A stretch of 64,000 nucleotides of DNA. Source: a virus. A model generated the notes under the pieces. It was not told the DNA's origin. It did not search any database and saw nothing but the letters and a program-made list of their open reading frames with translations. The DNA lies in UHGV virus genome UHGV-0247568; one strand, written 5' to 3'. Below, piece after piece: positions 10,161 through 56,693 of the stretch (position 1 is the stretch's first letter; every line of letters begins with the position of its first letter). Position numbers and translations under genes: made by a program.

Positions 10161-10179
10161 AAGAAGTGAGGTTGTTTAG

Positions 10180-11188: not shown

Positions 11189-11214
11189 TTTTTTATTAAA
11201 TTTTTAATTTTTAT

Positions 11215-11390: not shown

Positions 11391-11399
11391 ATGAATGAC

Positions 11400-12350: not shown

Positions 12351-12359
12351 AGGAGATGA

Positions 12360-12572
12360 GCTGAATTTGAATTAGTTAAAGGACGTTTTAAAGTTGGAGA
12401 CAGATTTAGACACATTCGTTATGGAAACTTGAATGTATTAAAAATTATAGAAGTCAGAGAATATGAGAGACATTTGCCAAACTATAGAGTGATTAGTGAA
12501 AATAATGGCTATAAATATTTGATTAGTGAAGATGAGTTAGTGAAATATCCAATTATTAGAAATGAGGAATAA
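12360..12572 (+). CDS. Small SH3/KOW-like protein (start codon uncertain), member of a small paralog family
   Basis: 70 stop-free codons '...KVGDRFRHIRYGNLNVLKIIEVREYERHLPNYRVISENNGYKYLISEDELVKYP...'. Similar to N-terminus of 22058 ORF and to 42268 ORF. No in-frame ATG; a TTG at 12429 possible. Confidence 0.35.
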   Translation, partial: AEFELVKGRFKVGDRFRHIRYGNLNVLKIIEVREYERHLPNYRVISENNGYKYLISEDELVKYPIIRNEE

Positions 12573-12575
12573 ATT

Positions 12576-21872: not shown

Positions 21873-22057
21873 AACAAATTTTAAATGATAGAAAAATGCA
21901 CGTTGAAAGATCATTGTCATTTTTAACTAATATCATACAAATTTATAAAAATAAAAATGATGATGAATCTAAAGAAAAATTTAAAATTGTAAAATCTTTA
22001 ATTAAATCATATCAAAAAGAATTAAAAGAAATTGATAGAAAGTTGGAGGATATTTAA
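21869..22057 (+). CDS. Hypothetical protein
   Basis: 62 aa. Confidence 0.35.
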   Translation: MKQILNDRKMHVERSLSFLTNIIQIYKNKNDDESKEKFKIVKSLIKSYQKELKEIDRKLEDI

Positions 22058-22684
22058 ATGGAATTCTTAAAAGAAGGACAGAAAGTAGTAGTAAAATACA
22101 ATGAAAATGAAACAAAAATTGGTCAAATTATCGAAGTTGATGATTTAGATTCAGAAATGCCATATCGTGTACAATATAAAGACGGTAGTAAAATTTGGGT
22201 ATATGCAACAGATGTCAAGCCATATAATCCACGGCGGAAAGTATATTTAGCTGGCCCATTCTTTAGTGATAAACAAATTGAGATTGTTAATGAACTCCAT
22301 GGCGCGTTAAATGAAAACAAATCAATTGAAAGTGTATTCGTTCCAATGGAACACCAAATGAACGATGGAGATTTAGAAGAGTTTACAGCTCCATGGGCTT
22401 ACGCTGTAGCTATGAATGATTATAAAAATGTTCGTGAAGCAGATATTGTGGTCGCAATTGTTGATTTTGATGGTCAAGATATGGATAGTGGAACAGCAGC
22501 AGAAATTGGATATGCATATGCCATTGGAAAACCAGTTTTCTTGTTCCATAAAGAAAACCATGAAATTATGGTTAATTTAATGGTAACAGAAGTTGCTCAA
22601 GCATATTTTACTGATTTACAACAAGTAAAAGATTATAATTTTACTACTCAGGAAAAAATTCCTTTCTCAGGAAATTATCGTTAA
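22058..22684 (+). CDS. Nucleoside 2-deoxyribosyltransferase with N-terminal ~55-aa SH3/KOW-like domain fusion
   Basis: 'KVYLAGPFF' and 'DMDSGTAAEIGYAYAIGKPV' (catalytic Glu region) match the NDT family. N-terminal domain resembles small ORFs at 12360 and 42268. Confidence 0.65.
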   Translation: MEFLKEGQKVVVKYNENETKIGQIIEVDDLDSEMPYRVQYKDGSKIWVYATDVKPYNPRRKVYLAGPFFSDKQIEIVNELHGALNENKSIESVFVPMEHQMNDGDLEEFTAPWAYAVAMNDYKNVREADIVVAIVDFDGQDMDSGTAAEIGYAYAIGKPVFLFHKENHEIMVNLMVTEVAQAYFTDLQQVKDYNFTTQEKIPFSGNYR

Positions 22685-22712
22685 AAATTAAAAAATATTT
22701 GCTCCATGGAGT

Positions 22713-22740
22713 TTACAAAATTCCATGGAGTTGATATAAT
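22713..22740 (+). promoter_or_regulatory. Promoter TTTACA / TGATATAAT with CCATGGAG copies immediately upstream and inside the spacer
   Basis: 'gctccatggagtttacaaaattccatggagttgatataat'. Confidence 0.55.
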
Positions 22741-22756
22741 ATAATTAAATAAATGA

Positions 22757-23611
22757 TTGAAAGAGAGGAAACTAATGTTGATTACAGCAGCTGGGAAAAT
22801 TGGAGCTGGAAAAAGTACAATCACTAAATTATTATCAGATGTACTTGAAACAAAAGCAGTATATGAACCAATTGAAGAAAATCCATTATTAGAAAAATTT
22901 TATGAAGACCGTGGAAAATATGGTTTTGTATTTCAAATCGATATGATTAGTCGCCGATTTGAATTAATTCAACAAGCATTAATGAAAGATAATTCTGTAT
23001 TAGATCGCTCCATTTTAGAAGATTCAATTTTTCTTGACCAATTACATTATGAAGGATATGTAAATGATTTTGAGCATGAAGCATATCATAAATTATTAGA
23101 TAGAATGATGAAAGAATTAGCATGTTTACCTAAAAAATTACCAGATTTATTAGTGTACATTGATGTTGATTTTGAAACAGAAATTGAACATATTAACAAA
23201 AGAGCACGTGAATTTGAAAAAGTAAATAAAGGCGACGAATTGTATGAATATTTCAAATTACATTCCCAGTTTTATGATAAGTGGATTGAAAATTTTGATT
23301 TAACGCCAGTTATTAAAATTGATGCTAAACAATATGATTTTGCTAATAATAAAGAAGATCAACAAGAAGTTTTATCACAAATTGTAGCAAAATTAGTTGA
23401 AATTCGTGCATTAACATTTAATGAAGCAGTTTTAGCATATTGTAATATTTATAAAGCACAACCAAAAGATGTAGCAATTAAATTATATAATAAAGTGCAA
23501 ACCCTAATGAATGGTATGTTAGAATATCATAATTTAGCTTTATTATATGATGAAAAATTAGATACAGTTGAAAAACTGAAAAAACGCATTAAAAACCAAA
23601 ATAAAAAATAG
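22757..23611 (+). CDS. Deoxynucleoside kinase (dCK/dGK/dNK family)
   Basis: P-loop 'AAGKIGAGKST', 'LDRSILEDSIFL' (ERS/DRS-like motif). Likely true start ATG 22775. Confidence 0.6.
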   Translation: MKERKLMLITAAGKIGAGKSTITKLLSDVLETKAVYEPIEENPLLEKFYEDRGKYGFVFQIDMISRRFELIQQALMKDNSVLDRSILEDSIFLDQLHYEGYVNDFEHEAYHKLLDRMMKELACLPKKLPDLLVYIDVDFETEIEHINKRAREFEKVNKGDELYEYFKLHSQFYDKWIENFDLTPVIKIDAKQYDFANNKEDQQEVLSQIVAKLVEIRALTFNEAVLAYCNIYKAQPKDVAIKLYNKVQTLMNGMLEYHNLALLYDEKLDTVEKLKKRIKNQNKK

Positions 23612-23632
23612 AAGAAAGTAGGAAATTATTTT

Positions 23633-24388
23633 ATGTTTGCAGCTTTAAAAGGAATTACGAAAAAAGAAGTTTTAGGAAATATTAAAGAATTATTCACATT
23701 ACAATATTATAAAGAAGGTTTAACTGGTTGGATGCCAATTACAAAAATTGCATGGTTAATTGGTTTTGCGATTATTGTTGGAACAGGTATTCCGCATGGT
23801 TTTGCAATTACAAATATTATTTCAATTGTGTCTGGATTAATTGGATACACATGTGTATTAGCAATTACAAATGGTAAGCGTATTAATGGGTTGCTTGGTT
23901 TTATTTCTGCTGTTGGTATTGGTGGTATGGCAATTCATGCTGGTAACCCAGCCGATGCAGTTATGCAATTAGCATATTTATTAGCATTAGATATTCCAGT
24001 AATTATCTTTGGTCACCGTTGGACAGCAGCAAAAATTAAAACATTTGACTTCAATGCTTTAAAAATTATTTTAGTAATTGGAATCATTGGTTTTGGATTA
24101 ATGTACTCAATGGACGCATTTTGGTTACACACTCCACGGCCTATGTTAGATGCTTTCGGAGCAACAATTGGTTTCATTGGTTCTGGATTAATGCTAGCAA
24201 AATACTCAACTCAATACTTTTTCTGGAATTTCCAAGGTATTATGAGCTTATTATTATGGGGTGTTACTGCATACCATGGAGATGCTAACTGGGTATTATT
24301 TGCAACTTATGCAATGTATTTAATGAATTCAATGATTGGAGCATTCCATTCTCCATGGGCTGAAGCTCGTAAAAATAAACATAAATAA
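23633..24388 (+). CDS. PnuC-family nucleoside/nicotinamide-riboside transporter
   Basis: 251 aa, ~7 TM helices. C-terminal pattern 'LAKY...FFWNFQG...LLLWGVTAY...NWVLF...HSPWAEARKN' resembles PnuC. Confidence 0.55.
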   Translation: MFAALKGITKKEVLGNIKELFTLQYYKEGLTGWMPITKIAWLIGFAIIVGTGIPHGFAITNIISIVSGLIGYTCVLAITNGKRINGLLGFISAVGIGGMAIHAGNPADAVMQLAYLLALDIPVIIFGHRWTAAKIKTFDFNALKIILVIGIIGFGLMYSMDAFWLHTPRPMLDAFGATIGFIGSGLMLAKYSTQYFFWNFQGIMSLLLWGVTAYHGDANWVLFATYAMYLMNSMIGAFHSPWAEARKNKHK

Positions 24389-41909: not shown

Positions 41910-42098
41910 ATGATGAAAAATTTAGAAAAATTCAATTTAAACGCAGGAGATAAAGTATTAATGGACGGCGATGTATATTTAATCTTAGATAGAAATATTA
42001 CGCCGTACAACATTGGAATGTATCAATTACAAAATTCAGAAAATCATAAATTTTGGCAAGCTGCTCAGATTACGGAACAAATTTCAACAAAATTATAA
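41910..42098 (+). CDS. Small SH3-like protein (paralog family)
   Basis: 62 aa 'AGDKVLMDGDVYLILDRN...'. Confidence 0.4.
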   Translation: MMKNLEKFNLNAGDKVLMDGDVYLILDRNITPYNIGMYQLQNSENHKFWQAAQITEQISTKL

Positions 42099-42119
42099 AA
42101 AAGAAAGAGGTAAATAAAA

Positions 42120-42266
42120 ATGAAAAAACAATATCAATCTAAAGAACAAGAAATTTTAAACCAAGCTAAAACAGTATCAAAATTAGAAAGCTTGAGCGAA
42201 AAAGAAAAAATTGCAGTATTAAAATTTTTAGAAAAGAAACATGTAAATATGGGAGGAAATTGGTAA
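42120..42266 (+). CDS. Small hypothetical protein (48 aa)
   Basis: RBS AGAGGTAA + ATG; not in ORF track. Confidence 0.3.
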   Translation: MKKQYQSKEQEILNQAKTVSKLESLSEKEKIAVLKFLEKKHVNMGGNW

Positions 42267-42267
42267 C

Positions 42268-42468
42268 ATGAAAGAAAAATTAGAATCAGGAATGGCAGTA
42301 ATGGTTAATGTGGACGATGGTCAAACTTTAATCAAGGATAAAATTGGAATTATTACAGAAGTTTTTCCTCAAAAATATACAGCGTTAACTGGTTTTCATT
42401 ATGAAGTTTCGCTTTTAAATAGTGGAACAGTCGTTAGATGCAATAAAAAAGAAATTAAGAAAATGTAG
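42268..42468 (+). CDS. Small SH3/KOW-like protein (paralog family)
   Basis: 'GMAVMVNVDDGQTLIKDKIGIITEV...YEVSLLNSGTVVRCNKKEIKK'. Confidence 0.4.
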   Translation: MKEKLESGMAVMVNVDDGQTLIKDKIGIITEVFPQKYTALTGFHYEVSLLNSGTVVRCNKKEIKKM

Positions 42469-42541
42469 GCCTTAAAGGTTTACATTTTCACTATTTATTG
42501 ATATAATATATTTATAAAAATAAATTAAATTGGAGGTATTT

Positions 42542-43057
42542 ATGAATTTAGTTATTGAGGGTCCTAAAGCAAGTGGAAAAAGCACAATTTCTCATTATTT
42601 TATTGAAAAATATTTAACGACATATGATCATATGAGCTCCGATAGTGATAACTCATTAAAAGGACACTTAGATTTATTAAAAGGTAAAAAAGGTGAATCA
42701 TTAAATCATGTTATAGATCGTTTTTCAGTAGGAGAAATGATTTATCCTAATTTATATGGTCGTGAAGGAAAATTAAATTTAGATGAATTTAATGTCACAA
42801 TGAGTTCAGAAAACACATTATACGTTATTCTTTATTCGTCGTCTGATCAATTATTATTTGATCGAATTGAATGGAGAGGAAGAAACACTGATGATGAAGA
42901 TCATGATTTAGTGTCGAAATCAAATTTTGCATTTAAAATGATTGGTGAATCATTGAAATATCGTGAAAATGTATTATTATTTGATGTTGCAAAAGTAGGA
43001 TTAAAAGAAATTATTAAAATAATTGAAGATAAATTGGAGGAGTTAAACAGATGTTAA
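42542..43057 (+). CDS. dNMP kinase (P-loop; thymidylate-kinase-like, T4 gp1 analogue?)
   Basis: 'VIEGPKASGKSTI' Walker A, small size, immediately upstream of and overlapping the dCMP hydroxymethylase gene. Confidence 0.5.
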   Translation: MNLVIEGPKASGKSTISHYFIEKYLTTYDHMSSDSDNSLKGHLDLLKGKKGESLNHVIDRFSVGEMIYPNLYGREGKLNLDEFNVTMSSENTLYVILYSSSDQLLFDRIEWRGRNTDDEDHDLVSKSNFAFKMIGESLKYRENVLLFDVAKVGLKEIIKIIEDKLEELNRC

Positions 43058-43896
43058 AATTTAAAAATGTAAATGATGCATGGATTCATTTGGCAAAAAA
43101 TGTCGTTTATAAAGGTGATGTTGTTGGAAATACAAAAGAATTAACAAATGTATCATTCCAAATTGAAAATCCATTAGATAATATTGTAAAAAGTCGTCAC
43201 AATTTTTCATTAACATATTATTTAGGTGAAACCGTATGGTATGGTGCTGGTAAAGACGATGTTGAATTTATTAGTAAATTTGGTCGTATTTGGAATCATT
43301 TAACGGATAATGGAATTTATAACAATAGTGCTTATGGTTATATCTTAAAAAATAAACATGGTTTTGACCAAATCGAAAAAGCAATTGAATTATTACGTGG
43401 AGATCAATATAGCCGACGAGCAGTGTTAAATATTAATATTCCACGGCGTGATGTTATTGAAACAAAAGATGAAATGTGCACAATTGCATTACAATTTTTA
43501 ATTCGTGATGGAAAATTAGATATGACTGGAATTATGCGTTCAAATGATTTATGGACCGGTACTCCATATGATATTTTTTATTTCACAACATTACAACAAT
43601 ATGTTGCATATATGTTAAATATTGACACTGGAACATATACACATTTTGCAACTTCTTTACACTGCTATTTACGCGATGAAGAAAAATTAATTAAATCTTT
43701 TGAAAATGACGCAAACAATGTTTATGCTGGCGTAGATATTAATGGAATGCGTTTATTATTACAAGCAGAAGATTTATATTATACAACTCGTAAAGAAGAA
43801 AACGCAAAATTAGAATTAGTTAAATTATGCAAAGAACGCAATATTATTAAAGGAAAAGAAGTTGAAAAAACTATTGAAAAACTATCTGCTATTTAG
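43051..43896 (+). CDS. dCMP hydroxymethylase (thymidylate-synthase-fold, T4 gp42-like)
   Basis: 'EMCTIALQFLIRDGKLDMTGIMRSNDLWTGTPYD' parallels T4 gp42 'FMCTNTVQYLIRDKKINAVVNMRSNDVVFGFRND' as I recall it. Catalytic Cys in MCT (not ThyA PCH). Asp at the E. coli ThyA Asn177-equivalent position (R+11), the residue that switches dUMP to dCMP specificity. Confidence 0.6.
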   Translation: MLKFKNVNDAWIHLAKNVVYKGDVVGNTKELTNVSFQIENPLDNIVKSRHNFSLTYYLGETVWYGAGKDDVEFISKFGRIWNHLTDNGIYNNSAYGYILKNKHGFDQIEKAIELLRGDQYSRRAVLNINIPRRDVIETKDEMCTIALQFLIRDGKLDMTGIMRSNDLWTGTPYDIFYFTTLQQYVAYMLNIDTGTYTHFATSLHCYLRDEEKLIKSFENDANNVYAGVDINGMRLLLQAEDLYYTTRKEENAKLELVKLCKERNIIKGKEVEKTIEKLSAI

Positions 43897-43924
43897 CAGA
43901 TAGTTTGTATAAAGGAGAAGAGTT

Positions 43925-44341
43925 ATGAAAATTAAAATTAATATGTTTAGTGATGAAGAAATTTACCAACCAAAAAGAGCACATTATAATGACGCAGGAG
44001 CTGATGTTCGCTCAACTGAAGAAATGTTAATTTGGCCAGGAGAAACTAGAAAAATTCCATTAGGTTTTGGATTAGAATTACCAGATGGATATATGGGAGT
44101 TATGATGAGTCGTTCAGGATTAGCTTCAAAAGGATTAGTTTCACAAAATGCACCGGTTGATTCTGGATATAAAGGTCAAGTTCACGCAATTATGACAAAT
44201 GTATCGGATGAAGTTATTAAAATTGAAAAATATGATAGAATCGCACAATTAGTAATTATTCCAGTTATGGTTGCAGATTTTGTCACAGAAACAGGTAGTG
44301 AAAGAACTAGTGATGGTTTTGGAAGTACAGGTTTAAAATAG
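43925..44341 (+). CDS. dUTPase (trimeric, all five motifs)
   Basis: 'AGADVRS', 'SRSGLASKG', 'VDSGYKGQV', 'RIAQLVI', 'RTSDGFGSTG'. Confidence 0.8.
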   Translation: MKIKINMFSDEEIYQPKRAHYNDAGADVRSTEEMLIWPGETRKIPLGFGLELPDGYMGVMMSRSGLASKGLVSQNAPVDSGYKGQVHAIMTNVSDEVIKIEKYDRIAQLVIIPVMVADFVTETGSERTSDGFGSTGLK

Positions 44342-44350
44342 GAGGATTAT

Positions 44351-45409
44351 ATGGAAATTTTATTATTGAATGTCGCAAATAACATTACGGATTTTCGAAC
44401 AGTGTCAAGTGGGGAAACAGTTTATCTAAAACAAATGTTAGAACAGTTAGGCCATGGAGTTACAATTGCTTCAAATAAAAACGGTGAATATGCAGTTGCA
44501 TTTGAGGAAATTGAGGATATTAACAATTTTGACAAAGTGGTTGTTTTACCTGCTTCACTGAATTTTTTCGGTGGTGTAGAAAACCCAACAATTATTAAAA
44601 ATTATAAATTATTAGCAAAATATAATGGAACTATTAATATTTTGCAAACTGACGCACGTTTGCCATTCAAGCAGTTGTGGCCAGCAATTGAGAAGCGTGG
44701 ATGGGGATATAAAAAAGAAGAAGTTTGGATTAATGCCCCAATTAAAGTAATTGCACAATCAAAAAATTTAGATGAAGTTAAAACACAATATGAAAAAGAA
44801 ATTTTCAATGATATTGAGTTTACACATTTTCCAATTGAGCGCTATGCTGGCATTGTGGCGTTAATGAATCCAATCGATGAAGTCGAAGAAAAAGAACACG
44901 ATTTAGTTTATTATGGTTCATTCCGTGGAGGCAATCGTGCTGCTAAAATGGCAGAATTTTTATGTGGAAACATTGTAGAAAAATTAGATGTCCACGTATT
45001 TGGAACAATTCGAGAAAAACAATTAGCTAAAAGTAGTGAAGGTCCATTTCCTTCGTTTGGTAAAAAGATGAAAATGAATGAAATTAGACAAGAGGTTAGC
45101 AAAAGTTTCTCAACTTTAATTATTGGTGAAAAATTTTATAATAATGCAATGTTGACAGTGAGGGTTTGGGAAACATTAAGTAGCGATGCGGTAGTTCTCA
45201 TTGACAACGATTTTGACTCTTACCATAATTTATTTCCTAATTCGCCATGGCGGTATGTTGAAAAAGAAGAAGATCTTATCGAAGTAGTAAAATCTCTTAA
45301 AGATGACGAAAATAAGAGAAAATTAGCGATTCAAGAGCAAAAAGAAGTGTTAGAAAAAATGATTGATTCTTCTCAATGGTTAAGAGATTTTGAAAATATT
45401 TTAGCTTAA
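44351..45409 (+). CDS. DNA beta-glucosyltransferase (T4 BGT-like)
   Basis: 352 aa; T4 BGT is 351 aa. N-terminus 'LLLNVANNITDFRTVSSGETVYL', 'NFFGG', 'DARLPFKQLWP', 'GSFRGGNRAAKMAEFL', 'LTVRVWETLSSDAVVLIDNDFD' parallel T4 BGT 'AIINMGNNVINFKTVPSSETIYL', 'NFFGG', 'DIRLPFSQSWP', 'LRVWETMASDAVMLIDEEFD'; T4 sequence from memory. Confidence 0.6.
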   Translation: MEILLLNVANNITDFRTVSSGETVYLKQMLEQLGHGVTIASNKNGEYAVAFEEIEDINNFDKVVVLPASLNFFGGVENPTIIKNYKLLAKYNGTINILQTDARLPFKQLWPAIEKRGWGYKKEEVWINAPIKVIAQSKNLDEVKTQYEKEIFNDIEFTHFPIERYAGIVALMNPIDEVEEKEHDLVYYGSFRGGNRAAKMAEFLCGNIVEKLDVHVFGTIREKQLAKSSEGPFPSFGKKMKMNEIRQEVSKSFSTLIIGEKFYNNAMLTVRVWETLSSDAVVLIDNDFDSYHNLFPNSPWRYVEKEEDLIEVVKSLKDDENKRKLAIQEQKEVLEKMIDSSQWLRDFENILA

Positions 45410-45480
45410 CGGTTTACGTTAAGCTTTTTTTATGATATAATATAACTATAAATAAATTAGAAAGAAATGGAGAGAAATTT

Positions 45481-46005
45481 ATGACAGTTCAGTTTAAAGC
45501 GAAAGGACATGAAGATAACATTATTCACTTATATTCAGATGGTGGTTGTCGGTCAACTGCTAAAAAAGGTGAAACTATAAAAGAAACAGATAAAAGTGCT
45601 TATGCATTCTTCTTAAAACAAGGTGGAAATGAAAAATTAGATGGGAAAGCAAGCTATGGAAAAACAAATAACAATCAAGAAATTATGGGATTATTAATGG
45701 GTTTACGTGCTATTAAACGCCCAGAATTTCCAGTTGTTGCATATTTAGATTCGGCTTATGTTGTTAATTGTTTACAAGCTGGTTGGTGGAAGAAGTGGAA
45801 AGCTAATGGATGGACGAAAAAAGGTGGATTAGCAAATGCTAAAGAATGGAAAGAATTAATTGAAGAATTAGAACGTTTTCCATTTTTTAGAATTGAAAAA
45901 GTTAAAGGACACAGTGGTTTCGCAGATTATAACGATTTAGTTGATAAACACTTAAATAAATTAATGGATGAATTACCTGAAATTGGAAAGGGAAATGTTT
46001 TATGA
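45481..46005 (+). CDS. Ribonuclease H (type 1)
   Basis: 'LYSDGGCR', 'NNQEIMGLLMGL', 'AYLDSAYVVN', 'KVKGHSG...YNDLVD' RNase HI catalytic motifs. Confidence 0.75.
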   Translation: MTVQFKAKGHEDNIIHLYSDGGCRSTAKKGETIKETDKSAYAFFLKQGGNEKLDGKASYGKTNNNQEIMGLLMGLRAIKRPEFPVVAYLDSAYVVNCLQAGWWKKWKANGWTKKGGLANAKEWKELIEELERFPFFRIEKVKGHSGFADYNDLVDKHLNKLMDELPEIGKGNVL

Positions 46006-46964
46006 TATATTATGGAGAGCCATATTTTGAATTATTTTCATATGAGGCGACTGATAAAGCAAGAAATGACACTTGTAAAATATTAAACTCCATGGGGTAT
46101 TCACCTTTAAAATTATCTTGTTTTTCAGGCGTGAACATTGAGAAAGCTGATGAAGAATTAGCCAACATTGAGGAAAATGACATAATTCTCTTACAATATC
46201 CAACTTACAGTGGAGCAGATTATGAAAAGAGATTAATTGAAATTTCTCATAAGAAAAAAGCAAAAATTGGCGCAATTGTTCACGATCTAGAATCTATAAG
46301 ATTCTATGGAAATGATAGTGACATTGAGATTTTAAATGGCTTTGATATTATTTCACTTCCCTCCATGGAGATGTATAAAAAACTCTTAAAACAAGGACTA
46401 AAAACAAAAGTAAAGATACAATTGATTTGGGATTTTCTCGCCATGGATAATCAACAGTGGTATGACACAAATTCGGACATTGTCTTTGCAGGTAATTTAA
46501 CAATGGAAAAGAGTAAATGGATAATGGATGTAGATTTTCCTATGTTAGTATATGGAGACAATATCAATAATTTAACTTTTAATGATGGTGTAAAATATTG
46601 TGGTAAAAAACATGACTCAGATTTAGTGAAAGAAATTGGTGGACAAATTGGATTATTATGGGAAGAAGGATTATATAAAAATTATTTAAAATATAATTTA
46701 TCATTTAAGCCTTCTTTATATCTTGCGGCAAATTGTCCAATTATTGTTCCAGCTAAAACACATATCGGAAATATTGTTGAAACATATAAAATAGGTGTAA
46801 CTGTTAAAAATATTGAAAGACAAACAATGTTAGATGCTGTTATTAAATTAAAAGATAATTTGAATTTTTATCAAGAGCGCGTCTCAACATTTGGAGAAAC
46901 AATTAGAAATGGGCAAAATATGAAAACGTTAGTTGAAAGCATGGTGAGAGAAATTGAAAATTGA
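46002..46964 (+). CDS. Hypothetical protein; possible second (GT-B-like) glycosyltransferase in the DNA-modification block
   Basis: 320 aa, no clear motif match; inference from context only. Confidence 0.3.
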   Translation: MIYYGEPYFELFSYEATDKARNDTCKILNSMGYSPLKLSCFSGVNIEKADEELANIEENDIILLQYPTYSGADYEKRLIEISHKKKAKIGAIVHDLESIRFYGNDSDIEILNGFDIISLPSMEMYKKLLKQGLKTKVKIQLIWDFLAMDNQQWYDTNSDIVFAGNLTMEKSKWIMDVDFPMLVYGDNINNLTFNDGVKYCGKKHDSDLVKEIGGQIGLLWEEGLYKNYLKYNLSFKPSLYLAANCPIIVPAKTHIGNIVETYKIGVTVKNIERQTMLDAVIKLKDNLNFYQERVSTFGETIRNGQNMKTLVESMVREIEN

Positions 46965-47211
46965 AATGTATGTTTTTGATAAAGTTGAGGTCGATTATGA
47001 AAATTTCACTAATACTGAATATGGAGAACAATGTAAGATTTATCGATTCTCCCAAGTTGGCTTAAACTCGGAAATAAAATCAAAAATTTATTCAATTAAA
47101 TTTAGAAAATTATTAAAATATCAATGGTATGTTGATTTACAAATTTGGATTATGAAAATGAGAAAGAAAACATTTGTGCAAAATGTATTAGGAAGGGAAT
47201 ACCATGGATGA
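46954..47211 (+). CDS. Hypothetical protein
   Basis: 85 aa. Confidence 0.35.
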   Translation: MKIEMYVFDKVEVDYENFTNTEYGEQCKIYRFSQVGLNSEIKSKIYSIKFRKLLKYQWYVDLQIWIMKMRKKTFVQNVLGREYHG

Positions 47212-47395
47212 AAAAACTAGACTAATTAATAGGCAAGAAGAATTATCAGCACGATTAGAAGGTTTAAAATTTGCGGAAAAATGGATAAAAATTTTTGGGC
47301 CTCTAAATGAAGATAATGTTCAAAAAGAAATTAAAACAACTATGGAGTTAATGGATGATAATTTAGCTAAATTGGAGGAAATTATATATGGTTGA
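47204..47395 (+). CDS. Hypothetical protein
   Basis: 63 aa. Confidence 0.35.
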   Translation: MDEKTRLINRQEELSARLEGLKFAEKWIKIFGPLNEDNVQKEIKTTMELMDDNLAKLEEIIYG

Positions 47396-47483
47396 AATAT
47401 TAATTGATTTTTTATTGGTTTTTCCCGCGATAATTCTTATTATTTTATTTGCGGCTATCTTAGCAATTATTAGTGAAATTTAA
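47388..47483 (+). CDS. 31-aa hydrophobic peptide (putative small membrane protein)
   Basis: GGAGG RBS 9 nt upstream of ATG 47388; single TM helix; not in ORF track. Confidence 0.3.
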   Translation: MVEILIDFLLVFPAIILIILFAAILAIISEI

Positions 47484-47496
47484 AGGAGAATGAAAA

Positions 47497-48105
47497 ATGG
47501 CAAAATTTACATTTATGTATGGAACTATGAAAAGCGGAAAAAGTATGGAGTTAATTAAAACTTATACAAATTATTTAGTAAAAGATCAAAAACCATTGGT
47601 GTTAAAAAGTGCAATTGATACACGTGACTCCAATACAGTTGCTACGCGACTAGGCTCTGCAATTACGTGTCAGTTATTAGGACAAAATCAAAATATTGCG
47701 GATTTTTTACAACAAGATAGCCGTAATAATCCTCCTGTTATTTTGATTGATGAAGCACAATTTTTAACAAAATCACAAGTTATCGAATGTGGTGTTCTAG
47801 TTGATACGCAAAATATTGATGTAATATGCTTTGGTTTGAAAACTGATTTTACTAATCATTTATTCGAAGGAAGTAAAGCTTTAATTGAAGAAGCTGATAA
47901 ATTGGTGGAAATTAAAACATTATGTGCTTTTTGTAATAAAAAAGCAACCCATAATTTATTAACTGAATTAAGAGAAGATGGTTATCGTTATGCTGTTGAT
48001 TCAGAAAATGTTGATGGAAATATTGTGATTGGTGATGAAGACTTTTTCCAATGCTGTAGAAAACATTATTATTTTTATGGAACTCAAACAAGGAAAGTGC
48101 AATAA
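47497..48105 (+). CDS. Thymidine kinase (TK1 family)
   Basis: 'GTMKSGKSMELI' P-loop, 'VILIDEAQF', C-terminal CxxC...CxxC zinc lasso. Confidence 0.8.
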   Translation: MAKFTFMYGTMKSGKSMELIKTYTNYLVKDQKPLVLKSAIDTRDSNTVATRLGSAITCQLLGQNQNIADFLQQDSRNNPPVILIDEAQFLTKSQVIECGVLVDTQNIDVICFGLKTDFTNHLFEGSKALIEEADKLVEIKTLCAFCNKKATHNLLTELREDGYRYAVDSENVDGNIVIGDEDFFQCCRKHYYFYGTQTRKVQ

Positions 48106-48106
48106 T

Positions 48107-48349
48107 ATGAAAATAGAAAAAGAGAAATTACAAAATATTGTTAAAAAATTAGAATATGAAGTTGAGTTTAATTCTCCAATTCCAGGAATAATCAATAATG
48201 AAAATATTATTATTGATTGGGAAGATATAATGGAAGATAACGAAGAAGATTTATGTGAAATTTGTGGTTGTGAACATATTGATTTGTGGGAAGCAGGTGC
48301 TTGTTGGTCTTCACATAATGACCCTGATTATGACCCATTCGACATTTAG
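48107..48349 (+). CDS. Hypothetical Cys-rich acidic protein (80 aa)
   Basis: ATG 48107 overlapping tk stop; 'CEICGCEH...ACW'. Confidence 0.35.
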   Translation: MKIEKEKLQNIVKKLEYEVEFNSPIPGIINNENIIIDWEDIMEDNEEDLCEICGCEHIDLWEAGACWSSHNDPDYDPFDI

Positions 48350-48947: not shown

Positions 48948-51900
48948 ATGAGCTGGCACAATGGTTGGTTTAGTATCCATAATCATTCACATTTTAGCAA
49001 TTTTCGTTTAAGAGATGCGACAAACTCACCACAGGATATTTTAAAAGTCGCTAATAACAAAGGGTTGAAAGGAATTGTATTATCAGACCACGAAACGATA
49101 GCTGGTGCACCAGTATTTCTAGACGCTGCGAAAAAAATGAAAGAAAAAGGCGAATTACCAGAAGATTTTGTAGCGGCAATTGGAAATGAAGCATATTTAA
49201 TTGATCGTAAATATGAGGAACCAATGAAAAATCAAGAAAAAGTTAAATATTTTCATTTTTTAATGGTTGCAAAAAATCAACGTGGTTTTGAATTTTTGAA
49301 AAAACAAACAGCTAAAGCGTGGGAAAACAGCACGTATTCAAGAGGTATGGAACGTGTTCCAACGTTTAAAGATGAATTAGCTGAACTAATGAAAGAATAT
49401 AAAGGCGATGTAATTGCGTCAACTGCATGTATTGGTGGAGAATTGCCACAATTAGTTCTTAAATTAGAAAAAGCAGAACAAGAAGCAGATGCAATGCGAA
49501 TTGGAGTAATAAAAATAGAGATTCATTATTTTATTGAATTTTTAGTTAATACTTTTGGACATGATAATGTATTTTTTGAATTACAACCGTCAAAACAAGA
49601 TGAACAATTGATTGTTAATAAATGGTTACCAAAAATTGCAGAAGAATATAACATTAAATGTATTGTTACAACAGATGCGCATTATCTTACATTAGAGCAG
49701 CAAGAATTTCATAAACAATATTTACAAGCTTCAGAAGGTGAACGTGAAGTAGAATCTTTTTATGCAACAACATATATTTTCTCATATGATGAACTGTTAG
49801 AATATTTTGATGAAGAATTATTAAATGAATTGTGTAAAAACACATTGATTATTAGAGATATGGTTAATAACGAATTAAAATATAAACATGAAACAGTTAT
49901 TCCACGATCTCATATTCCACATTTCGAACAAGATGAAAGTGTTATGCAAAAAATTGATGAAGCAAAATATCCGAATATTTATAAAATGATGAGATCTTCA
50001 GTTATTGAAGATAGATATTATCATTTTAAAGTTATGAAAGGATTCGTTGAAAAGGAACAAGAATTTAATGAAGAAAATTTAAGTAGGATTGATTTAGAAT
50101 ATGGTGAGCTTCAAGCAATTAGTGAACAATTAAATCAACCAATGACTTCATATTTCTTAGCAATGACAGAATTTGTTGATATTATGTGGGAATATTCATT
50201 AGTTGGTGTTGGCCGTGGTTCTGCAGTATGTTATTATACAAATTATTTATTAGATATTGTTCAATTAAATCCAATTAAATATGATTTACCATATTGGAGA
50301 TTTTTATCTCGTGAATATGTTGGAGAATTTCCAGATATTGACGTTGATGCTCAAGGTAGTGAACGTGCAAATATTATTGAAGGTGTAAAAGAAAAATTTG
50401 GACATGAAAATGTGTTAAATATTGGAACTTACACAACTGAGGGACCTCGAGCAGCATCATTAACCGCATGTCGTGCATTCGGTTTAGATCCGGATACAGC
50501 ACAAAATATCACAAATGCAATTCCGAGTGACAAGGGGTTCGCTTGGCCATTACAAGACGCATTTTTCGGAAATGAAAAAGAACACAGAAAACCAGATAAG
50601 CAATTTATTTATATGGTAAATGAATATCCAGGACTGCAGGAGTTAATGTTACAATCTCAAGGTTTAGTAAGTGGACGTGGACAACATGCTTCAGGTGTTG
50701 TTGTTTTTCCAGACGGATATACTTCTTTAAACACAATGATGAAGACAAGTAAAGGGTTGCCAATCACTCAGTGGGATGCACATACAACTGAGGTCGCTGG
50801 TGGAATTAAATATGACTTTTTATCAATTAATGCACTAGATAGAATTAGAGCCGCAATTGATATGTTGTTAAAAGATGGTAAAATTGAATGGCAAGGATCA
50901 TTACAAAAAACTTTCAATAAATATTTTCACCCAGACGTTTTAGATATGGAAAGTCAAGAAATGTTTGATATGCTATTTAATGGAGAAATTATTTCAGCTT
51001 TTCAGTTTGAAGCAAAAACAGGTAGACAAGCATTAGAAAAAATTAATGCGCGTACGTTCGATCAATTAGTTGCTGCAAATTCATTAATGCGTTTATCTTC
51101 AGATGGAGAACAGCCAATTGATAAATACATTCGTTATAAAAATGATTTAAACGAATGGGAAAAAGATATGGACGAATATAATTTAACTGAAGATGAAAAA
51201 GCAGTTATGCACGAATTATTAGATAAAAAATTTGGTGTGTGTGAAGTTCAAGAATCAATTATGAAAATTGCAATGCATGAAAAAGTAGCAAAATATAATT
51301 TGAGAGAAGCAAAGGGATTACGTAAAGCTTCAGCGAAAAAAGACCCAACAATTCAAGTTAAACAAAAAGAATTATTCTTTAAAAAAGGTAGAGAAAATGG
51401 AACTAGTGATAATTTATTAAATTATATTTGGAATGAATGTTATGTTCCAACATTTGGTTATTCATTTTCAGAACCTCACGTAGCAGCATATACAATGATT
51501 TTAATGATTGAAATGAATATTGCTTATAGATATGGGGTTCATTATTGGAAAGCAGCATGTTTGAATGTTGATGCGGGAATTATCGGAGAACTTGAAGCGG
51601 GGACAAAATACGGTAAAGTCGCAAAAGCATTATCAAATTTCCGAGAAGATGTTATTCCACCGTCAGTTAATAAAAGCGATATTGGTTTTACACCGGATCA
51701 AAATACAGGCAAAATTATGTATGGATTAAAACCAATTGTTGGTATGAATAGTAAATTAGCAAAACAAATTATTGAAGGTCGTCCATATAAAAATATGCAA
51801 CATTTTATTGATCATAATGTTATAAATGGTGATTTAACAAATACAAAAATGGTAACATTAATTAAAAGTGGATTATTTGATGAATTATATCCAAATAGGA

Positions 51901-52814
51901 AACAATTAATGGTAAATTTTGTTATGTATGCAGAACCATTTAAACAAAAATTGTCAACTTCAGTGATTCCAAAAATTGCACATTTAATTCCAGATAAATA
52001 TAAAGATGCAAAAGAAGCATATTTCTTTTTGAAAGAAATTAAAAGTAAAAAAGTTCATGATGAATATACGGAATATTTCTTTAATAATTTTAAAGAAGAT
52101 TGTGATAAAAAAGTAACTAAAAAATATCCAGAATCATATACCTATAATGATAATGGGAATTTTATAATTGAAATTAAAGTTTTAGAAAAAGTTGTAAAAG
52201 ATAGAATGGAAAAATTAAAAGAATGGTTACAAACAGAAGACGCACTAAAAGCTGAAGCTTCACTAAGAAGAAGTGTATATTGGCAAAAATATTGTTTAGG
52301 AACAATATCTCACTGGGAAATGGAATCAATCACATTCTATATTTCACAACATGAATTAGAAGAATATCCAATTCATTCATTTTTCGAATTATCTAATTTC
52401 AATGAATTACCGAGAGAGCCAGAAGTTGATGGTTGGAATAATGGACGTGGTGGTAAAAAATGGCCAAAATATAAAAGTCATGTAATTGCGGGAACGGTAA
52501 TTGACACACTTCCACAAAAAGGTATAGTTACTTTAATCACCAAAGACGGTGTTGTTGATGTTCGTGTTGGAAAAGGAAAATATCAATATTATAATAAAAA
52601 GATCATGATTGGACAAGGTAAAGAACGTGTTAATATTGATGATACATGGTGGAAACGCGGAAATATGGTAGTTGTTGTTGGTTACCGTAGAGAAAATGAT
52701 TTTTATGCTAATGCAAAAAATAGTGCATATCAACATTCAGTTATGTTAATTAAAGGACATGATGGAGAAAAAATATTTTTACAACAAGAAAAGAAAAAAG
52801 TTGAAGAAGATTAA
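48948..52814 (+). CDS. DNA polymerase III alpha-type (family C, PHP domain) replicative polymerase
   Basis: 1288 aa. N-terminal PHP 'SIHNHSHFSNFRLRDA...IVLSDHETIAG'. Size and layout of DnaE/PolC catalytic subunit. Confidence 0.65.
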   Translation: MSWHNGWFSIHNHSHFSNFRLRDATNSPQDILKVANNKGLKGIVLSDHETIAGAPVFLDAAKKMKEKGELPEDFVAAIGNEAYLIDRKYEEPMKNQEKVKYFHFLMVAKNQRGFEFLKKQTAKAWENSTYSRGMERVPTFKDELAELMKEYKGDVIASTACIGGELPQLVLKLEKAEQEADAMRIGVIKIEIHYFIEFLVNTFGHDNVFFELQPSKQDEQLIVNKWLPKIAEEYNIKCIVTTDAHYLTLEQQEFHKQYLQASEGEREVESFYATTYIFSYDELLEYFDEELLNELCKNTLIIRDMVNNELKYKHETVIPRSHIPHFEQDESVMQKIDEAKYPNIYKMMRSSVIEDRYYHFKVMKGFVEKEQEFNEENLSRIDLEYGELQAISEQLNQPMTSYFLAMTEFVDIMWEYSLVGVGRGSAVCYYTNYLLDIVQLNPIKYDLPYWRFLSREYVGEFPDIDVDAQGSERANIIEGVKEKFGHENVLNIGTYTTEGPRAASLTACRAFGLDPDTAQNITNAIPSDKGFAWPLQDAFFGNEKEHRKPDKQFIYMVNEYPGLQELMLQSQGLVSGRGQHASGVVVFPDGYTSLNTMMKTSKGLPITQWDAHTTEVAGGIKYDFLSINALDRIRAAIDMLLKDGKIEWQGSLQKTFNKYFHPDVLDMESQEMFDMLFNGEIISAFQFEAKTGRQALEKINARTFDQLVAANSLMRLSSDGEQPIDKYIRYKNDLNEWEKDMDEYNLTEDEKAVMHELLDKKFGVCEVQESIMKIAMHEKVAKYNLREAKGLRKASAKKDPTIQVKQKELFFKKGRENGTSDNLLNYIWNECYVPTFGYSFSEPHVAAYTMILMIEMNIAYRYGVHYWKAACLNVDAGIIGELEAGTKYGKVAKALSNFREDVIPPSVNKSDIGFTPDQNTGKIMYGLKPIVGMNSKLAKQIIEGRPYKNMQHFIDHNVINGDLTNTKMVTLIKSGLFDELYPNRKQLMVNFVMYAEPFKQKLSTSVIPKIAHLIPDKYKDAKEAYFFLKEIKSKKVHDEYTEYFFNNFKEDCDKKVTKKYPESYTYNDNGNFIIEIKVLEKVVKDRMEKLKEWLQTEDALKAEASLRRSVYWQKYCLGTISHWEMESITFYISQHELEEYPIHSFFELSNFNELPREPEVDGWNNGRGGKKWPKYKSHVIAGTVIDTLPQKGIVTLITKDGVVDVRVGKGKYQYYNKKIMIGQGKERVNIDDTWWKRGNMVVVVGYRRENDFYANAKNSAYQHSVMLIKGHDGEKIFLQQEKKKVEED

Positions 52815-55084: not shown

Positions 55085-55780
55085 ATGGAAAGAAAATTTG
55101 AAAAAGTAAGTGGATATGAAGATGTAAATATCCCATTAAGAGCAACACGTTTTTCAGCTGGTTACGATTTTGAAGCGGCTGAAGATATTACAATTCCTTC
55201 GTTAGTGATTGGAATTGATCAATACGCAGAAAATATTAAACGAAAAATTGATGCGACAGATGATGTGCCTATCACTGAAGATCAATATGAAAAACTTAAT
55301 AATATTAATAGTAAATTTGAAGATAATTCAATTTACACTCAAGCTGATGAAAAAAATTATTTAGACGTATTAACAATTATGAATGATATTTTAGATGAAG
55401 ACGTAGATACGGTTTTAGACCATTTGAATCAATTTAAAAATACATTCAAACCAACTTTAGTTCCAACTGGTATTAAAGCAAAAATGCCAAGTGATGAAAT
55501 GTTGTTATTATATAATCGTTCTTCAAATCCATTAAAACGTTTCTTGTTTTTAGCAAATGGTGTTGGAGTTATTGATAGTGATTATTATAATAATGAAGGA
55601 AATGAAGGACATATTATGTTCCAATTTATTAATTTAGGCCCCACACCGATCACTATTAAAAAAGGTGAACGAATTGGCCAAGGAATTTTCCAAAAATTCT
55701 TATTAACGACAGATGTTGAAATTACACAAGATGTTGAACGAACTGGTGGTTTTGGCTCAACTAATAAGGAGGAACAATAA
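55085..55780 (+). CDS. dUTPase-family enzyme with ~80-aa insertion between motifs (candidate dCTPase/dUTPase)
   Basis: 'SAGYDFEA', 'IDSDYYNNEGNEG', 'GERIGQGIF', 'RTGGFGSTN' dUTPase motifs I, III-V; long inserted helical segment. Confidence 0.6.
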   Translation: MERKFEKVSGYEDVNIPLRATRFSAGYDFEAAEDITIPSLVIGIDQYAENIKRKIDATDDVPITEDQYEKLNNINSKFEDNSIYTQADEKNYLDVLTIMNDILDEDVDTVLDHLNQFKNTFKPTLVPTGIKAKMPSDEMLLLYNRSSNPLKRFLFLANGVGVIDSDYYNNEGNEGHIMFQFINLGPTPITIKKGERIGQGIFQKFLLTTDVEITQDVERTGGFGSTNKEEQ

Positions 55781-56073
55781 TGGAACGTAAAGTTATTCAT
55801 GTGTTTTATGATAAAAATCATACGACAGACTTAGCTGTTTTGAATGTTATTGAAGAAATTGAAAGCAAATTTGATTCAAAATTAAATTTAATTATTCAAC
55901 CATTAGAAGTTGAGCAAGATATTGTTATGACGAACGCATATGGTATTCCTTTATCTTTTGAAGGTGTTTATATTATTGTTTTAGATAAAGATAATAATCA
56001 AGAACAATGTATTCATGCAAAAACAAAAATTCAGGCTTTATCAAAATTGAAAGGAACGAGCGTTTATAAATGA
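55780..56073 (+). CDS. Hypothetical protein
   Basis: 97 aa. Confidence 0.35.
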   Translation: MERKVIHVFYDKNHTTDLAVLNVIEEIESKFDSKLNLIIQPLEVEQDIVMTNAYGIPLSFEGVYIIVLDKDNNQEQCIHAKTKIQALSKLKGTSVYK

Positions 56074-56693
56074 AATTAACTAAACCAATATTTGTTCTTG
56101 CTGGAAAAACACTTTCTGGCAAGACAACATTATTAAATTATTTACTTGACTATTGTCGTAAAACCGACCATAATAGAGTTCATAAAGTTGTCACTATCAC
56201 AACTCGCCCTAAGCGACCTGGTGAAATTGATGGTCAAGATTATTTTTTCATCACTAATGAACAATTTGACCAAATGAAAAAAGATGGTAAAATTATTGCT
56301 CCACGAGAATATAATGTTGCAACTGGAGAAGTATGGAAATATGGAATTGAAAAAGGTTTTGAAAATGAATATGAAATTCCAATTGTTGTAACAGATGTTC
56401 AAGGAATTAAAGATTTGAAAAAAGAATTTGGAGCACATAATGTAATTGTATTCTATAAAGAAATTCCACCAATTTTACAATTATCACGAATGATGAGACG
56501 AGAAGAAAATGATTTTCGTGAACAAGTGCGCCGTGTAATTGCAGATGAAAAAGATTTTGAAACAATTTGGGATTGGGCAGATTATATTTTAGACGACAAC
56601 GATAGTTTACAAAACGATGCAGAATTTATGATCGGCCAAATTGACTATGAAATTGACCAATTCAACAGTCCTTATCGAGGCTATTATATTTAA
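56070..56693 (+). CDS. Guanylate-kinase-family nucleoside monophosphate kinase
   Basis: 'LAGKTLSGKTT', 'ITTRPKRPGEIDGQDYFFI' guanylate kinase signature. Confidence 0.65.
   Translation: MKLTKPIFVLAGKTLSGKTTLLNYLLDYCRKTDHNRVHKVVTITTRPKRPGEIDGQDYFFITNEQFDQMKKDGKIIAPREYNVATGEVWKYGIEKGFENEYEIPIVVTDVQGIKDLKKEFGAHNVIVFYKEIPPILQLSRMMRREENDFREQVRRVIADEKDFETIWDWADYILDDNDSLQNDAEFMIGQIDYEIDQFNSPYRGYYI

Follow-up and report, generated by a model that had tools for sequence, protein, structure and literature searches.

Genes for a predicted glucosylated cytosine modification in an Enterococcus siphophage of the genus Vipetofemvirus

Gene content of the module and published experiments on related phages

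The virus genome UHGV-0247568 was analysed as one strand of 64,000 nucleotides (the window, to which positions refer unless another phage is named). At 42,542-46,964 it carries a run of plus-strand genes that appears to serve the replacement of cytosine by a glucosylated base: a YorR-like kinase, an enzyme of the thymidylate synthase (TS) fold predicted to be a deoxycytidylate (dCMP) 5-hydroxymethylase, a dUTPase, a homologue of the T4 DNA beta-glucosyltransferase (BGT), RNase HI and a second glycosyltransferase (Table 1). An earlier note on this DNA, made from the letters alone, had proposed a T4-like cytosine hypermodification gene set here. The six open reading frames (ORFs) that it named are all present, each on the plus strand, and a Shine-Dalgarno-like GGAG motif was found upstream of all six ORFs checked.

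Table 1. Coordinates of the modification module, its putative signals and other nucleotide-metabolism genes
Feature	Position	Strand	Description
Terminator-like hairpin	42459-42489		just upstream of the kinase promoter-like site
Promoter-like site	42479-42507	+	TTTACA-17-TATAAT, extended TG; 35 nt upstream of the kinase ATG
YorR-like nucleoside/nucleotide kinase	42542-43057	+	171 amino acids; P-loop GPKASGKST
Predicted deoxycytidylate 5-hydroxymethylase (TS fold)	43051-43896	+	281 amino acids; predicted reaction dCMP + methylene-tetrahydrofolate + water to 5-hydroxymethyl-dCMP
Trimeric-fold dUTPase	43925-44341	+	138 amino acids; ends DGFGSTG
DNA beta-glucosyltransferase (T4 BGT family)	44351-45409	+	352 amino acids; predicted reaction UDP-glucose + 5-hydroxymethylcytosine DNA to beta-glucosyl-5-hydroxymethylcytosine
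Terminator-like hairpin	45403-45425	+	9-bp stem then T run; overlaps the BGT stop codon
Promoter-like site	45413-45441		after the hairpin at the BGT stop
RNase HI	45481-46005	+	stop overlaps the ATG of the second glycosyltransferase
Second glycosyltransferase, Gtf3/WbbI family	46002-46964	+	320 amino acids; ATG overlaps the RNase HI stop
Thymidine kinase	47497-48105	+	Pfam TK, E = 6e-38
Second dUTPase with insert	55085-55780	+	231 amino acids; PF00692, E = 2e-14; ends GGFGSTN
Guanylate-kinase-like enzyme	56070-56693	+	Pfam Guanylate_kin, E = 4e-18; PHROG 1815, E = 1e-38
Nucleoside-salvage cluster	21312-24388		LOG-like protein, nucleoside 2-deoxyribosyltransferase, deoxynucleoside kinase, PnuC-like transporter
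Deoxynucleoside kinase	22757-23611	+	Pfam dNK, E = 3e-39

The region 42000-48200 was compared by megablast with 50,697 phage records. Exclusively Enterococcus phages were matched, over the full query, with nucleotide identities of 97% for vB_EfaS_140 and nattely and 93% for VPE25, VFW, vipetofem and vB_EfKM29. The window is from an Enterococcus siphophage of the genus Vipetofemvirus, subfamily Andrewesvirinae, whose members related to it are siphophages of about 86 kb.

The DNA of two of these relatives has been studied experimentally. VPE25 and VFW DNA was protected from bisulfite conversion and resisted EcoRI and MspI (Duerkop et al. 2016, mBio, PMC4999554), the latter enzyme being described as cutting unmethylated, 5-methylcytosine (5mC) and 5-hydroxymethylcytosine (5hmC) DNA but not glucosyl-5hmC DNA (PMC4999554). 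PvuRts1I, described as specific for 5hmC and glucosyl-5hmC, was able to cut it (PMC4999554). The modification was ascribed to a BGT homologue with about 40% identity to that of T4, and a second 'nucleotide sugar synthetase-like' gene was named as a possible further modifier (PMC4999554). These published experiments show that cytosines are modified in phages of the same genus and that their DNA behaves as glycosylated 5hmC. As the BGT encoded in the window is 98-99% identical to those of VFW and vipetofem, the modification is already documented for the genus, and the novelty implied by the earlier note falls away, both the modification and the BGT gene having been reported for VPE25 and VFW in 2016. 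The observation itself is real and its interpretation essentially right; the phenomenon was already known.

Predicted route to the modified base

The protein encoded at 43051-43896 matches the Pfam family Thymidylat_synt (PF00303, E = 9e-21), and the motifs that had been quoted as typical of T4 gp42, DEMCTIALQFLIRD...MRSNDLWTGTPYD, were found in it. It was aligned with E. coli ThyA, T4 gp42, RB69 gp48, the dUMP hydroxymethylases of SPO1 and SP-10, its orthologue from the genus Denvervirus and two Bacteroides phage homologues. The numbering of the ThyA sequence used reproduces C146, R166, D169, N177, L143 and E58; the gp42 residues were mapped onto the protein by global alignment. It can be seen that the catalytic cysteine is retained (C143, equivalent to ThyA C146 and gp42 C148), as are the catalytic glutamate (E60, equivalent to gp42 E60 in the global alignment and to ThyA E58 in a column read by eye) and the equivalents of ThyA H207 and Y209.

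The positions that distinguish the members of this fold point in one direction. At the specificity position, in the motif T-P-Y-D, Asp174 aligns with ThyA Asn177 and gp42 Asp179, in agreement with the earlier note; Asp is also found here in RB69 gp48 and in MilA, whereas the SPO1 and SP-10 enzymes have Asn. The change from Asn to Asp at ThyA-177 shifts specificity from dUMP to dCMP (PMC13326640). At ThyA-143, where Leu is thought to keep water out and T4-like 5-hydroxymethyl-dCMP synthases have an acidic residue (PMC13326640), the protein has Asp, three residues before the catalytic cysteine as in gp42 (D-E-M-C, and D-F-M-C in gp42). Arg126 and Ser167, which are markers of deoxyribose preference and are replaced by Lys and Ala in the ribo-specific MilA and BcmA (PMC5175136), are both retained (SRRAV and MRSND, with SKRAV and MRAND in MilA). 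In addition, the protein lies far under every NCBIfam ThyA equivalog cut-off, for example with 86.8 against 174.6 bits. On the strength of these diagnostic residues and scores, its sequence identifies it as a deoxycytidylate 5-hydroxymethylase, and not as ThyA, a dUMP hydroxymethylase, a 5-hydroxy-dCMP synthase or a CMP hydroxymethylase.

The description of the enzyme as gp42-type thus holds for its functional class, as judged by the diagnostic residues, and fails for its descent, since MilA is nearer. The best match in the Protein Data Bank (PDB) was MilA, a CMP hydroxymethylase (E = 7e-26, residues 29-209), and gp42 did not appear among the 60 top-scoring PDB sequences listed; by BLASTP gp42 showed 30% identity across 93 residues only (E = 2e-10). 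The nearest phage homologues found by tblastn were a mixture of dUMP- and dCMP-type enzymes.

Two other assignments of this enzyme were weighed. It is very unlikely that it belongs with the 5-hydroxy-dCMP synthases of RB69 and DLP3, so that the sugar would be ether-linked to 5-hydroxycytosine. Asp177 and an acidic residue at 143 fit either type, RB69 was long misread as a 5hmC phage, and MilA is also listed as the top structural match of the RB69 and DLP3 enzymes (PMC13326640). However, Asn instead of Asp at ThyA-169 is the mark of the 5-hydroxy-dCMP synthases of RB69, DLP3 and others (PMC13326640); all tested synthases have it (RSQN in RB69), whereas the window enzyme, like T4 gp42, retains Asp169 (RSND). 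The transferase of the module is a full-length homologue of T4 BGT, whose known acceptor is 5hmC, and the cleavage of VPE25 and VFW DNA by PvuRts1I (PMC4999554) also speaks for 5hmC.

Even less likely is an ordinary thymidylate synthase or an SPO1-like dUMP hydroxymethylase, with BGT acting on hydroxymethyluracil or another base. Databases do annotate the gene as 'thymidylate synthase', and many of the nearest phage homologues in the tblastn search come from phages with bases derived from 5-hydroxymethyldeoxyuridine; such bases occur in SPO1, SP-10, ViI-like phages, M6 and YuA. Yet Asp takes the place of Asn at ThyA-177 (Asn in SPO1 and SP-10) and of Leu at 143, the ThyA equivalog cut-offs are missed by a wide margin, and the bisulfite protection of VPE25 and VFW DNA shows that cytosine is the modified base (PMC4999554).

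Several side observations concern this gene. All Vipetofemvirus GenBank records label it 'thymidylate synthase', and most of the module is annotated as hypothetical in those of nattely and vipetofem; the record of the Denvervirus phage Planchet alone says 'pyrimidine hydroxymethylase'. The gene also forms a local mosaic patch, with 76% identity to VPE25 while the adjoining genes have 95-99% and the surrounding region 93-94% (the VPE25 copy compared occupies positions 13058-13903 of the VPE25 stretch analysed). In the Bacteroides phage BF486P3, two TS homologues lie within 3 kb with a dUTPase gene between them (2162-2923 and 4995-5675 of the stretch analysed), and both have Asp at ThyA-177 and at 143.

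For the transferase at 44351-45409 the earlier note had claimed likeness to T4 BGT along the whole length, and this was borne out. The protein matches Pfam T4-Gluco-transf (PF09198) with E = 8e-62, the match covering positions 1-166 of the 167 in the profile and the homology taking in the N-terminal domain peculiar to the family, and PHROG 7922 (beta-glucosyltransferase) with E = 1e-98 over positions 1-354 of 358. BLASTP with T4 b-gt gave 41% identity over 343 residues (E = 5e-84), and the blocks NFFGG, RLPF.Q.WP and VRVWET..SDAV.LID..FD were found in the alignment. The T4 residues E22, D100, S189, R191, R195, Y261, R269 and E272 are kept without exception (8 of 8, global alignment); from the crystal-structure literature on T4 BGT we take D100 to be the catalytic base and the other seven to be UDP-glucose contacts. 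The Pfam family presumably corresponds to family GT63 of CAZy. By sequence criteria the protein is a full-length homologue of T4 BGT and a predicted 5hmC glucosyltransferase. The phage records with a BGT homologue comprise T4-like Straboviridae, the present Enterococcus phages, the Lactobacillus phage ATCCB and a single Ralstonia jumbo phage.

The stop codon of the kinase gene overlaps the ATG of the hydroxymethylase gene. Its product gave a weak match to PHROG 761 'thymidylate kinase' (E = 1e-6), no match in the PDB when searched as a single sequence, and nine relatives in a large protein database. When a profile of 10 homologues was searched against the PDB, YorR of the Bacillus subtilis phage SPbeta was matched (2axp/3kb2, E = 1.6e-5). 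The AlphaFold model (pLDDT 88) gave the same answer, as 2axp was the best Foldseek match (TM 0.79, rmsd 2.9), followed by thymidylate and deoxynucleoside kinases. YorR (3kb2) is also listed as a structural match of the DLP3 nucleotide kinase, whose gene lies two genes away from that of the TS homologue (PMC13326640). A homology to T4 gp1 was tried and rejected. Only the P-loop aligns, with an hhalign probability of 24% over 43 columns, and a probability of 59% was obtained with RB69 gp45, both runs having used a shallow alignment of four sequences; the kinase has no match to the gp1 family PF21448, and its Planchet orthologue reaches E = 0.004, under the cut-off.

The earlier claim of a T4-like deoxynucleoside monophosphate kinase accordingly stands for a P-loop protein overlapping the start of the hydroxymethylase gene, and falls for a relative of gp1, the protein being YorR-like instead. 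Since the fold is YorR-like and only the P-loop aligns with gp1, the kinase is a plausible functional analogue of gp1 outside its family. Conversion of 5-hydroxymethyl-dCMP to the diphosphate is its likely reaction, because its gene overlaps that of the hydroxymethylase and the same pairing is seen in Planchet, in the second Denvervirus phage 9183 and in ATCCB.

Taken together, these genes very probably encode a pre-replicative replacement of cytosine that ends in glycosylation at the DNA level, with glucosyl-5hmC as the predicted product. In the proposed route, dCMP would be provided by breakdown of host DNA, by deoxycytidine salvage through the phage deoxynucleoside kinase, or by dCTP hydrolysis. 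The TS-fold enzyme would convert it into 5-hydroxymethyl-dCMP with methylene-tetrahydrofolate and water, the adjoining YorR-like kinase would form the diphosphate, and host nucleoside diphosphate kinase activity would yield 5-hydroxymethyl-dCTP. The DnaE-like phage polymerase would then put 5-hydroxymethyl-dC into DNA in place of dC, and BGT, with UDP-glucose as the donor, would glucosylate the hydroxymethyl groups of the polymer. DNA modified in this way would escape ordinary restriction enzymes. The enzyme classes of the hydroxymethylase, BGT and the dUTPases and the fold of the kinase are established at the sequence level. The glucosylated 5-hydroxymethyl-dC predicted in the earlier note is in this way supported by the diagnostic residues, the BGT homology and the published behaviour of VPE25 and VFW DNA.

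The 2016 paper arrived at another route. It names only two glycosyltransferases and describes a post-replicative conversion of 5mC to 5hmC, the hydroxymethylase and the kinase not being identified (PMC4999554). Such a pathway, in which cytosine is methylated, hydroxylated to 5hmC and then glucosylated, is conceivable in principle, for phage TET/5mYOX systems exist, and it is the one written down for this genus (PMC4999554). It misfits the gene content, however, because no DNA cytosine methyltransferase and no TET/JBP-like dioxygenase is annotated in the genus or was found in the ORFs scanned, whereas a complete nucleotide-level route, with hydroxymethylase and kinase, is present. We consider post-replicative modification the least likely of all the alternatives.

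Some points weigh against pre-replicative replacement by glucosyl-5hmC. PvuRts1I cuts VPE25 and VFW DNA incompletely (PMC4999554). Mass-spectrometric data on the modified nucleoside, which would fix the exact sugar, the linkage and the extent of replacement, were looked for in the searchable literature and not found. The rules on diagnostic residues are empirical and drawn from a limited set of characterised enzymes, and the hydroxymethylase is only 76% identical to that of VPE25, the active-site motifs being all identical. Finally, no homologue of the T4 dCTPase gp56 was found, both dUTPase-fold proteins being without similarity to it. As to later work, no characterisation of the modification in Andrewesvirinae or Lactobacillus phages beyond the 2016 paper was found in the searchable literature, and a Nat Commun 2024 paper on an enterococcal inhibitor of type IV restriction mentions neither VPE25 nor 5hmC.

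The dCTPase step was considered further. The T4 enzyme gp56 is an all-alpha pyrophosphatase, with a fold unlike that of the trimeric dUTPases. No gp56-like family was seen in the ORFs scanned or in the genus annotations, small ORFs not having been scanned exhaustively, and in thirteen larger ORFs of uncharacterised product neither PHROG nor Pfam revealed a MazG-like or HD-type pyrophosphatase. The protein at 43925-44341 is a complete dUTPase, as had been noted (Pfam dUTPase PF00692, E = 1e-22; PDB dUTPases, E = 3e-21), and lies just over the NCBIfam dUTP diphosphatase equivalog cut-off (106.6 against 103 bits). With 99% identity to the VPE25 copy and 76% to the Denvervirus orthologue, it is the most conserved gene of the module.

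The second dUTPase had been suggested to be the dCTPase on account of its insert, a suggestion for which no support was obtained. Its core is of Firmicute type, 53% identical over 103 aligned core residues to the Streptococcus mutans dUTPase 3h6x (E = 7e-31). The insert comprises about 82 residues (residues 41-122, window 55205-55450) after the first motif, has a pI of 4.1 and a net charge of about -11, and is hypervariable in the genus: between the window and VPE25 it is 21% identical while the flanking core is 85-89% identical. This disparity suggests a fast-evolving interaction surface rather than a changed catalytic specificity, so that the protein probably remains a dUTPase with the insert as an interaction domain. 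The acidic insert resembles in this respect the variable insert known from dUTPases of staphylococcal phages. An attempt to read dUTP or dCTP specificity from the residues before motif III was abandoned, as Asn84 of the E. coli enzyme is not conserved even among the bona fide dUTPases aligned. For an added dCTPase role the short dUTPase would be the better guess, because it apparently shares a transcription unit with the hydroxymethylase and no gene of the module is better conserved.

The layout of the region suggests that the kinase, hydroxymethylase, dUTPase and BGT genes form one transcription unit, beginning at the promoter-like site at 42479 and ending at the hairpin that overlaps the BGT stop codon, and that RNase HI and the second glycosyltransferase, in overlapping frames, would begin the next. 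Terminator-like sites are in excess in the region (5 observed, 1.7 expected). The promoter-like sites are consensus matches only and no commoner than in shuffled sequence; the evidence for them is the intergenic placement of the two best, which is taken as a suggestion only.

Elsewhere in the window are genes that could feed or complement the route. The salvage cluster gave Pfam matches to Nuc_deoxyrib_tr (3e-23), Lysine_decarbox (LOG, 7e-28) and NMN_transporter (2e-19), and its deoxynucleoside kinase is a possible extra source of dCMP. The guanylate-kinase-like enzyme and the YorR-like kinase may split between them tasks that T4 gp1 does alone. The genus annotation contains no true thymidylate synthase and no ribonucleotide reductase; lacking the former, the phage must obtain dTMP from the host or from salvage.

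Two further claims concerned the genome as a whole. The HK97-type capsid was confirmed (Phage_capsid, E = 6e-42). The polymerase (48948-52814, 1288 residues) is of family C as stated, whereas the name PolC is imprecise, because the domain order is DnaE-like (N-terminal PHP, pol III alpha, finger, HhH) and no exonuclease domain was detected in the domain scan. In vB_EfKM29 a GIY-YIG homing endonuclease gene, absent from the window, lies directly upstream of the polymerase gene. The GC content is 26-32% over most of the length and up to 38% in the capsid region, and genes lie on the plus strand from about 10 kb onward. A single tRNA gene, tRNA-Trp (CCA) at 7493-7566 on the minus strand, is found in the structural and packaging gene block, just upstream of the minus-strand terminase large-subunit ORF (5749-7455).

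A candidate second sugar

The earlier note had listed the ORF at 46002-46964 as a possible glycosyltransferase, and a full-length match to structures of streptococcal glucosyltransferase 3 (Gtf3) upholds this. Residues 18-312 align with residues 20-329 of Gtf3 (9hu9/3qkw) at about 25% identity (E = 1.6e-19 for 9hu9). The NCBIfam model NF007323 (PRK09814, beta-1,6-galactofuranosyltransferase) was matched with E = 1.5e-37 and 129.5 bits against a cut-off of 529, and there was no Pfam or PHROG match. As far as sequence can tell, the protein is a family-level member of Gtf3/WbbI and not an equivalog. Its similarity to Gtf3 (GtfC/Nss; 3qkw, 9hu9) and to WbbI-type enzymes extends over the full length, and the known enzymes of these groups act on glycoproteins or O-antigen units, not on DNA.

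The gene is 98% identical at the protein level to that of VFW or VPE25, and an orthologue with 48% identity stands at the same position in Denvervirus. A tblastn search of the 50,697 phage records found no T-even homologue, the matches being confined to phages of Enterococcus and Lactobacillus plus three unclassified records. Distant homologues lie inside the replication modules of Lactobacillus myophages. In Lactobacillus phage SAC12B (Herelleviridae; 6992-8754 of the stretch analysed), a transferase homologue with 27% identity overlaps the end of the helicase-primase gene, and a 'thymidylate kinase' gene comes after it.

One possibility is that this enzyme acts on the sugar already attached to the DNA. 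Gtf3 adds glucose onto GlcNAc. The beta-1,6-galactofuranosyltransferase class moves galactofuranose onto alpha-D-glucopyranosides (PMC4999554). As both groups of relatives add sugar onto sugar, a second sugar on glucosyl-5hmC is a reasonable hypothesis, and DNA may be counted as a candidate acceptor. We propose tentatively, with confidence short of even, that the final base is a di-glycosylated 5hmC, the glucose that BGT has attached receiving a further glucose or galactofuranose from the enzyme. The proposal extends, and does not replace, the best explanation given above, and its product would resemble the gentiobiosyl-5hmC of T2 and T6, made by an unrelated enzyme.

Besides the sugar-on-sugar reactions of the solved or named relatives, several observations favour a second sugar. 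The gene overlaps that of RNase HI within the nucleotide and replication cluster, it is kept in place in Denvervirus, its distant Lactobacillus phage homologues sit between helicase-primase and nucleotide kinase genes, and in ATCCB the BGT homologue has a UDP-galactopyranose mutase as its partner. The possibility was also raised by Duerkop et al. (PMC4999554). On the other hand, Denvervirus keeps the gene though its first-sugar genes differ, so that the enzyme would need to tolerate a different acceptor; the NCBIfam scores are far under the family cut-offs; and its acceptor could instead be a protein, of the host or of the phage, or a polymer of the cell wall. The isoelectric point was uninformative as a hint of DNA binding, being 5.1 for the phage BGT, 5.2 for the second transferase and 5.0 for streptococcal Gtf3.

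If a second sugar is added, a Gtf3/WbbI transferase would have been recruited to extend a sugar on DNA, as a non-homologous counterpart of the gentiobiosyl system of T2 and T6. The slot between the dUTPase and RNase H genes would be an exchangeable first-sugar cassette, holding BGT in Vipetofemvirus and, in Denvervirus, an RB69-like sugar-activation set with another glycosyltransferase. As a corollary, dCTP exclusion, should it occur, would be achieved by a dUTPase of the trimeric fold rather than by a gp56-type enzyme.

Significance and comparison with known and related phages

Vipetofemvirus phages such as VPE25 are studied as therapy candidates against drug-resistant enterococci, and DNA modification decides which host restriction systems are escaped (types I-III) and which are able to target the phage (type IV, GmrSD-like nucleases). 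What is added here is a corrected gene-level pathway. The 'thymidylate synthase' gene is, by all the sequence features considered, predicted to encode a dCMP hydroxymethylase and has a YorR-like kinase gene as its partner; the route is pre-replicative as against the methylation and subsequent oxidation described in 2016. The residual value of the analysis lies in this corrected annotation and in the hypotheses of a second sugar and of cassette exchange.

The phages VPE25, VFW, nattely, vipetofem, vB_EfaS_140 and vB_EfKM29 have the same gene order throughout and 93-97% nucleotide identity to the window over the module. The kinase is 95% identical to that of VFW or VPE25, and VPE25 differs from the window in the two places already mentioned, the hydroxymethylase (76%) and the insert of the second dUTPase (21%).

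Denvervirus (Planchet and 9183) keeps the kinase, hydroxymethylase, dUTPase, RNase H, Gtf3-like transferase and thymidine kinase genes, and the Planchet hydroxymethylase has the same diagnostic residues as the window enzyme. In the position equivalent to window 44351-45409 (Planchet 7234-10431 and 9183 9747-12947 of the stretches analysed), BGT is replaced by a 114-residue HAD phosphatase, a 544-residue nucleotidyltransferase-kinase fusion and a different glycosyltransferase of 406 residues. The phosphatase is 35% identical to RB69p051, and the kinase part of the fusion 27% identical to RB69p052. The slot looks like an exchangeable first-sugar cassette, and from the exchange a different sugar on 5hmC is predicted in Planchet and 9183.

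The Lactobacillus brevis siphophage ATCCB has a module with a YorR-like kinase, a TS homologue and a BGT homologue (25%, 49% and 30% identical to those of the window). Its TS homologue contains the motifs DEPCT and MRSNDLWFGTPYD, with the same signature of Asp143, RSND and Asp177. A UDP-galactopyranose mutase gene follows the module, which is without the intervening dUTPase gene (5658-9222 of the stretch analysed). This arrangement suggests, as a prediction from gene content, a 5hmC modification containing galactofuranose; modification data for ATCCB were not found, and the paper describing the phage makes no mention of modification. The comparison with Denvervirus and ATCCB suggests that 5hmC glycosylation modules whose sugar genes can be exchanged are distributed among the siphophages of lactic acid bacteria, where they are apparently undescribed in the searchable literature.

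Among characterised enzymes, MilA of mildiomycin biosynthesis (PDB 5b6d/5jnh) is the nearest solved structure to the hydroxymethylase by sequence. Asp at ThyA-143 and -177 is common to both; MilA has Ala176 and Lys133, favouring ribo-CMP, whereas the phage enzyme has Ser and Arg at these positions, as deoxyribose-specific enzymes do. The dUMP hydroxymethylases SPO1 gp29 and that of SP-10 share with the window enzyme the TS fold, Asp143, RSND and about 30-33% identity, and differ at position 177, where their Asn goes with dUMP specificity. RB69 gp48 and DLP3 gp80 are 5-hydroxy-dCMP synthases leading to arabinosyl-5-hydroxycytosine (PMC13326640). Like the window enzyme they have the TS fold, Asp177, an acidic residue at 143 and genes clustered with a YorR- or thymidylate-kinase-like kinase and glycosyltransferases, but they have Asn at ThyA-169 where the window enzyme has Asp. 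The sugar-activation genes (HAD phosphatase and nucleotidyltransferase-kinase fusion) are absent from the window and present in Denvervirus.

The closest parallel in chemistry and logic is T4, with hydroxymethylation at the nucleotide level followed by phosphorylation, polymerisation and glucosylation of the DNA, a sequence that for the window is predicted from the genes. The two BGT proteins are true homologues and in both phages the BGT gene is adjacent to the hydroxymethylase gene, while gp42 shares the diagnostic residues with the window enzyme and is otherwise distant. No homologue of the alpha-glucosyltransferase was found in the annotated Vipetofemvirus genomes. In place of the gp1 kinase and gp56 of T4, the window has a YorR-like kinase and two trimeric-fold dUTPases, and it differs from T4 also in belonging to a siphovirus of a Gram-positive host, whose capsid is HK97-type and whose polymerase is DnaE-like.

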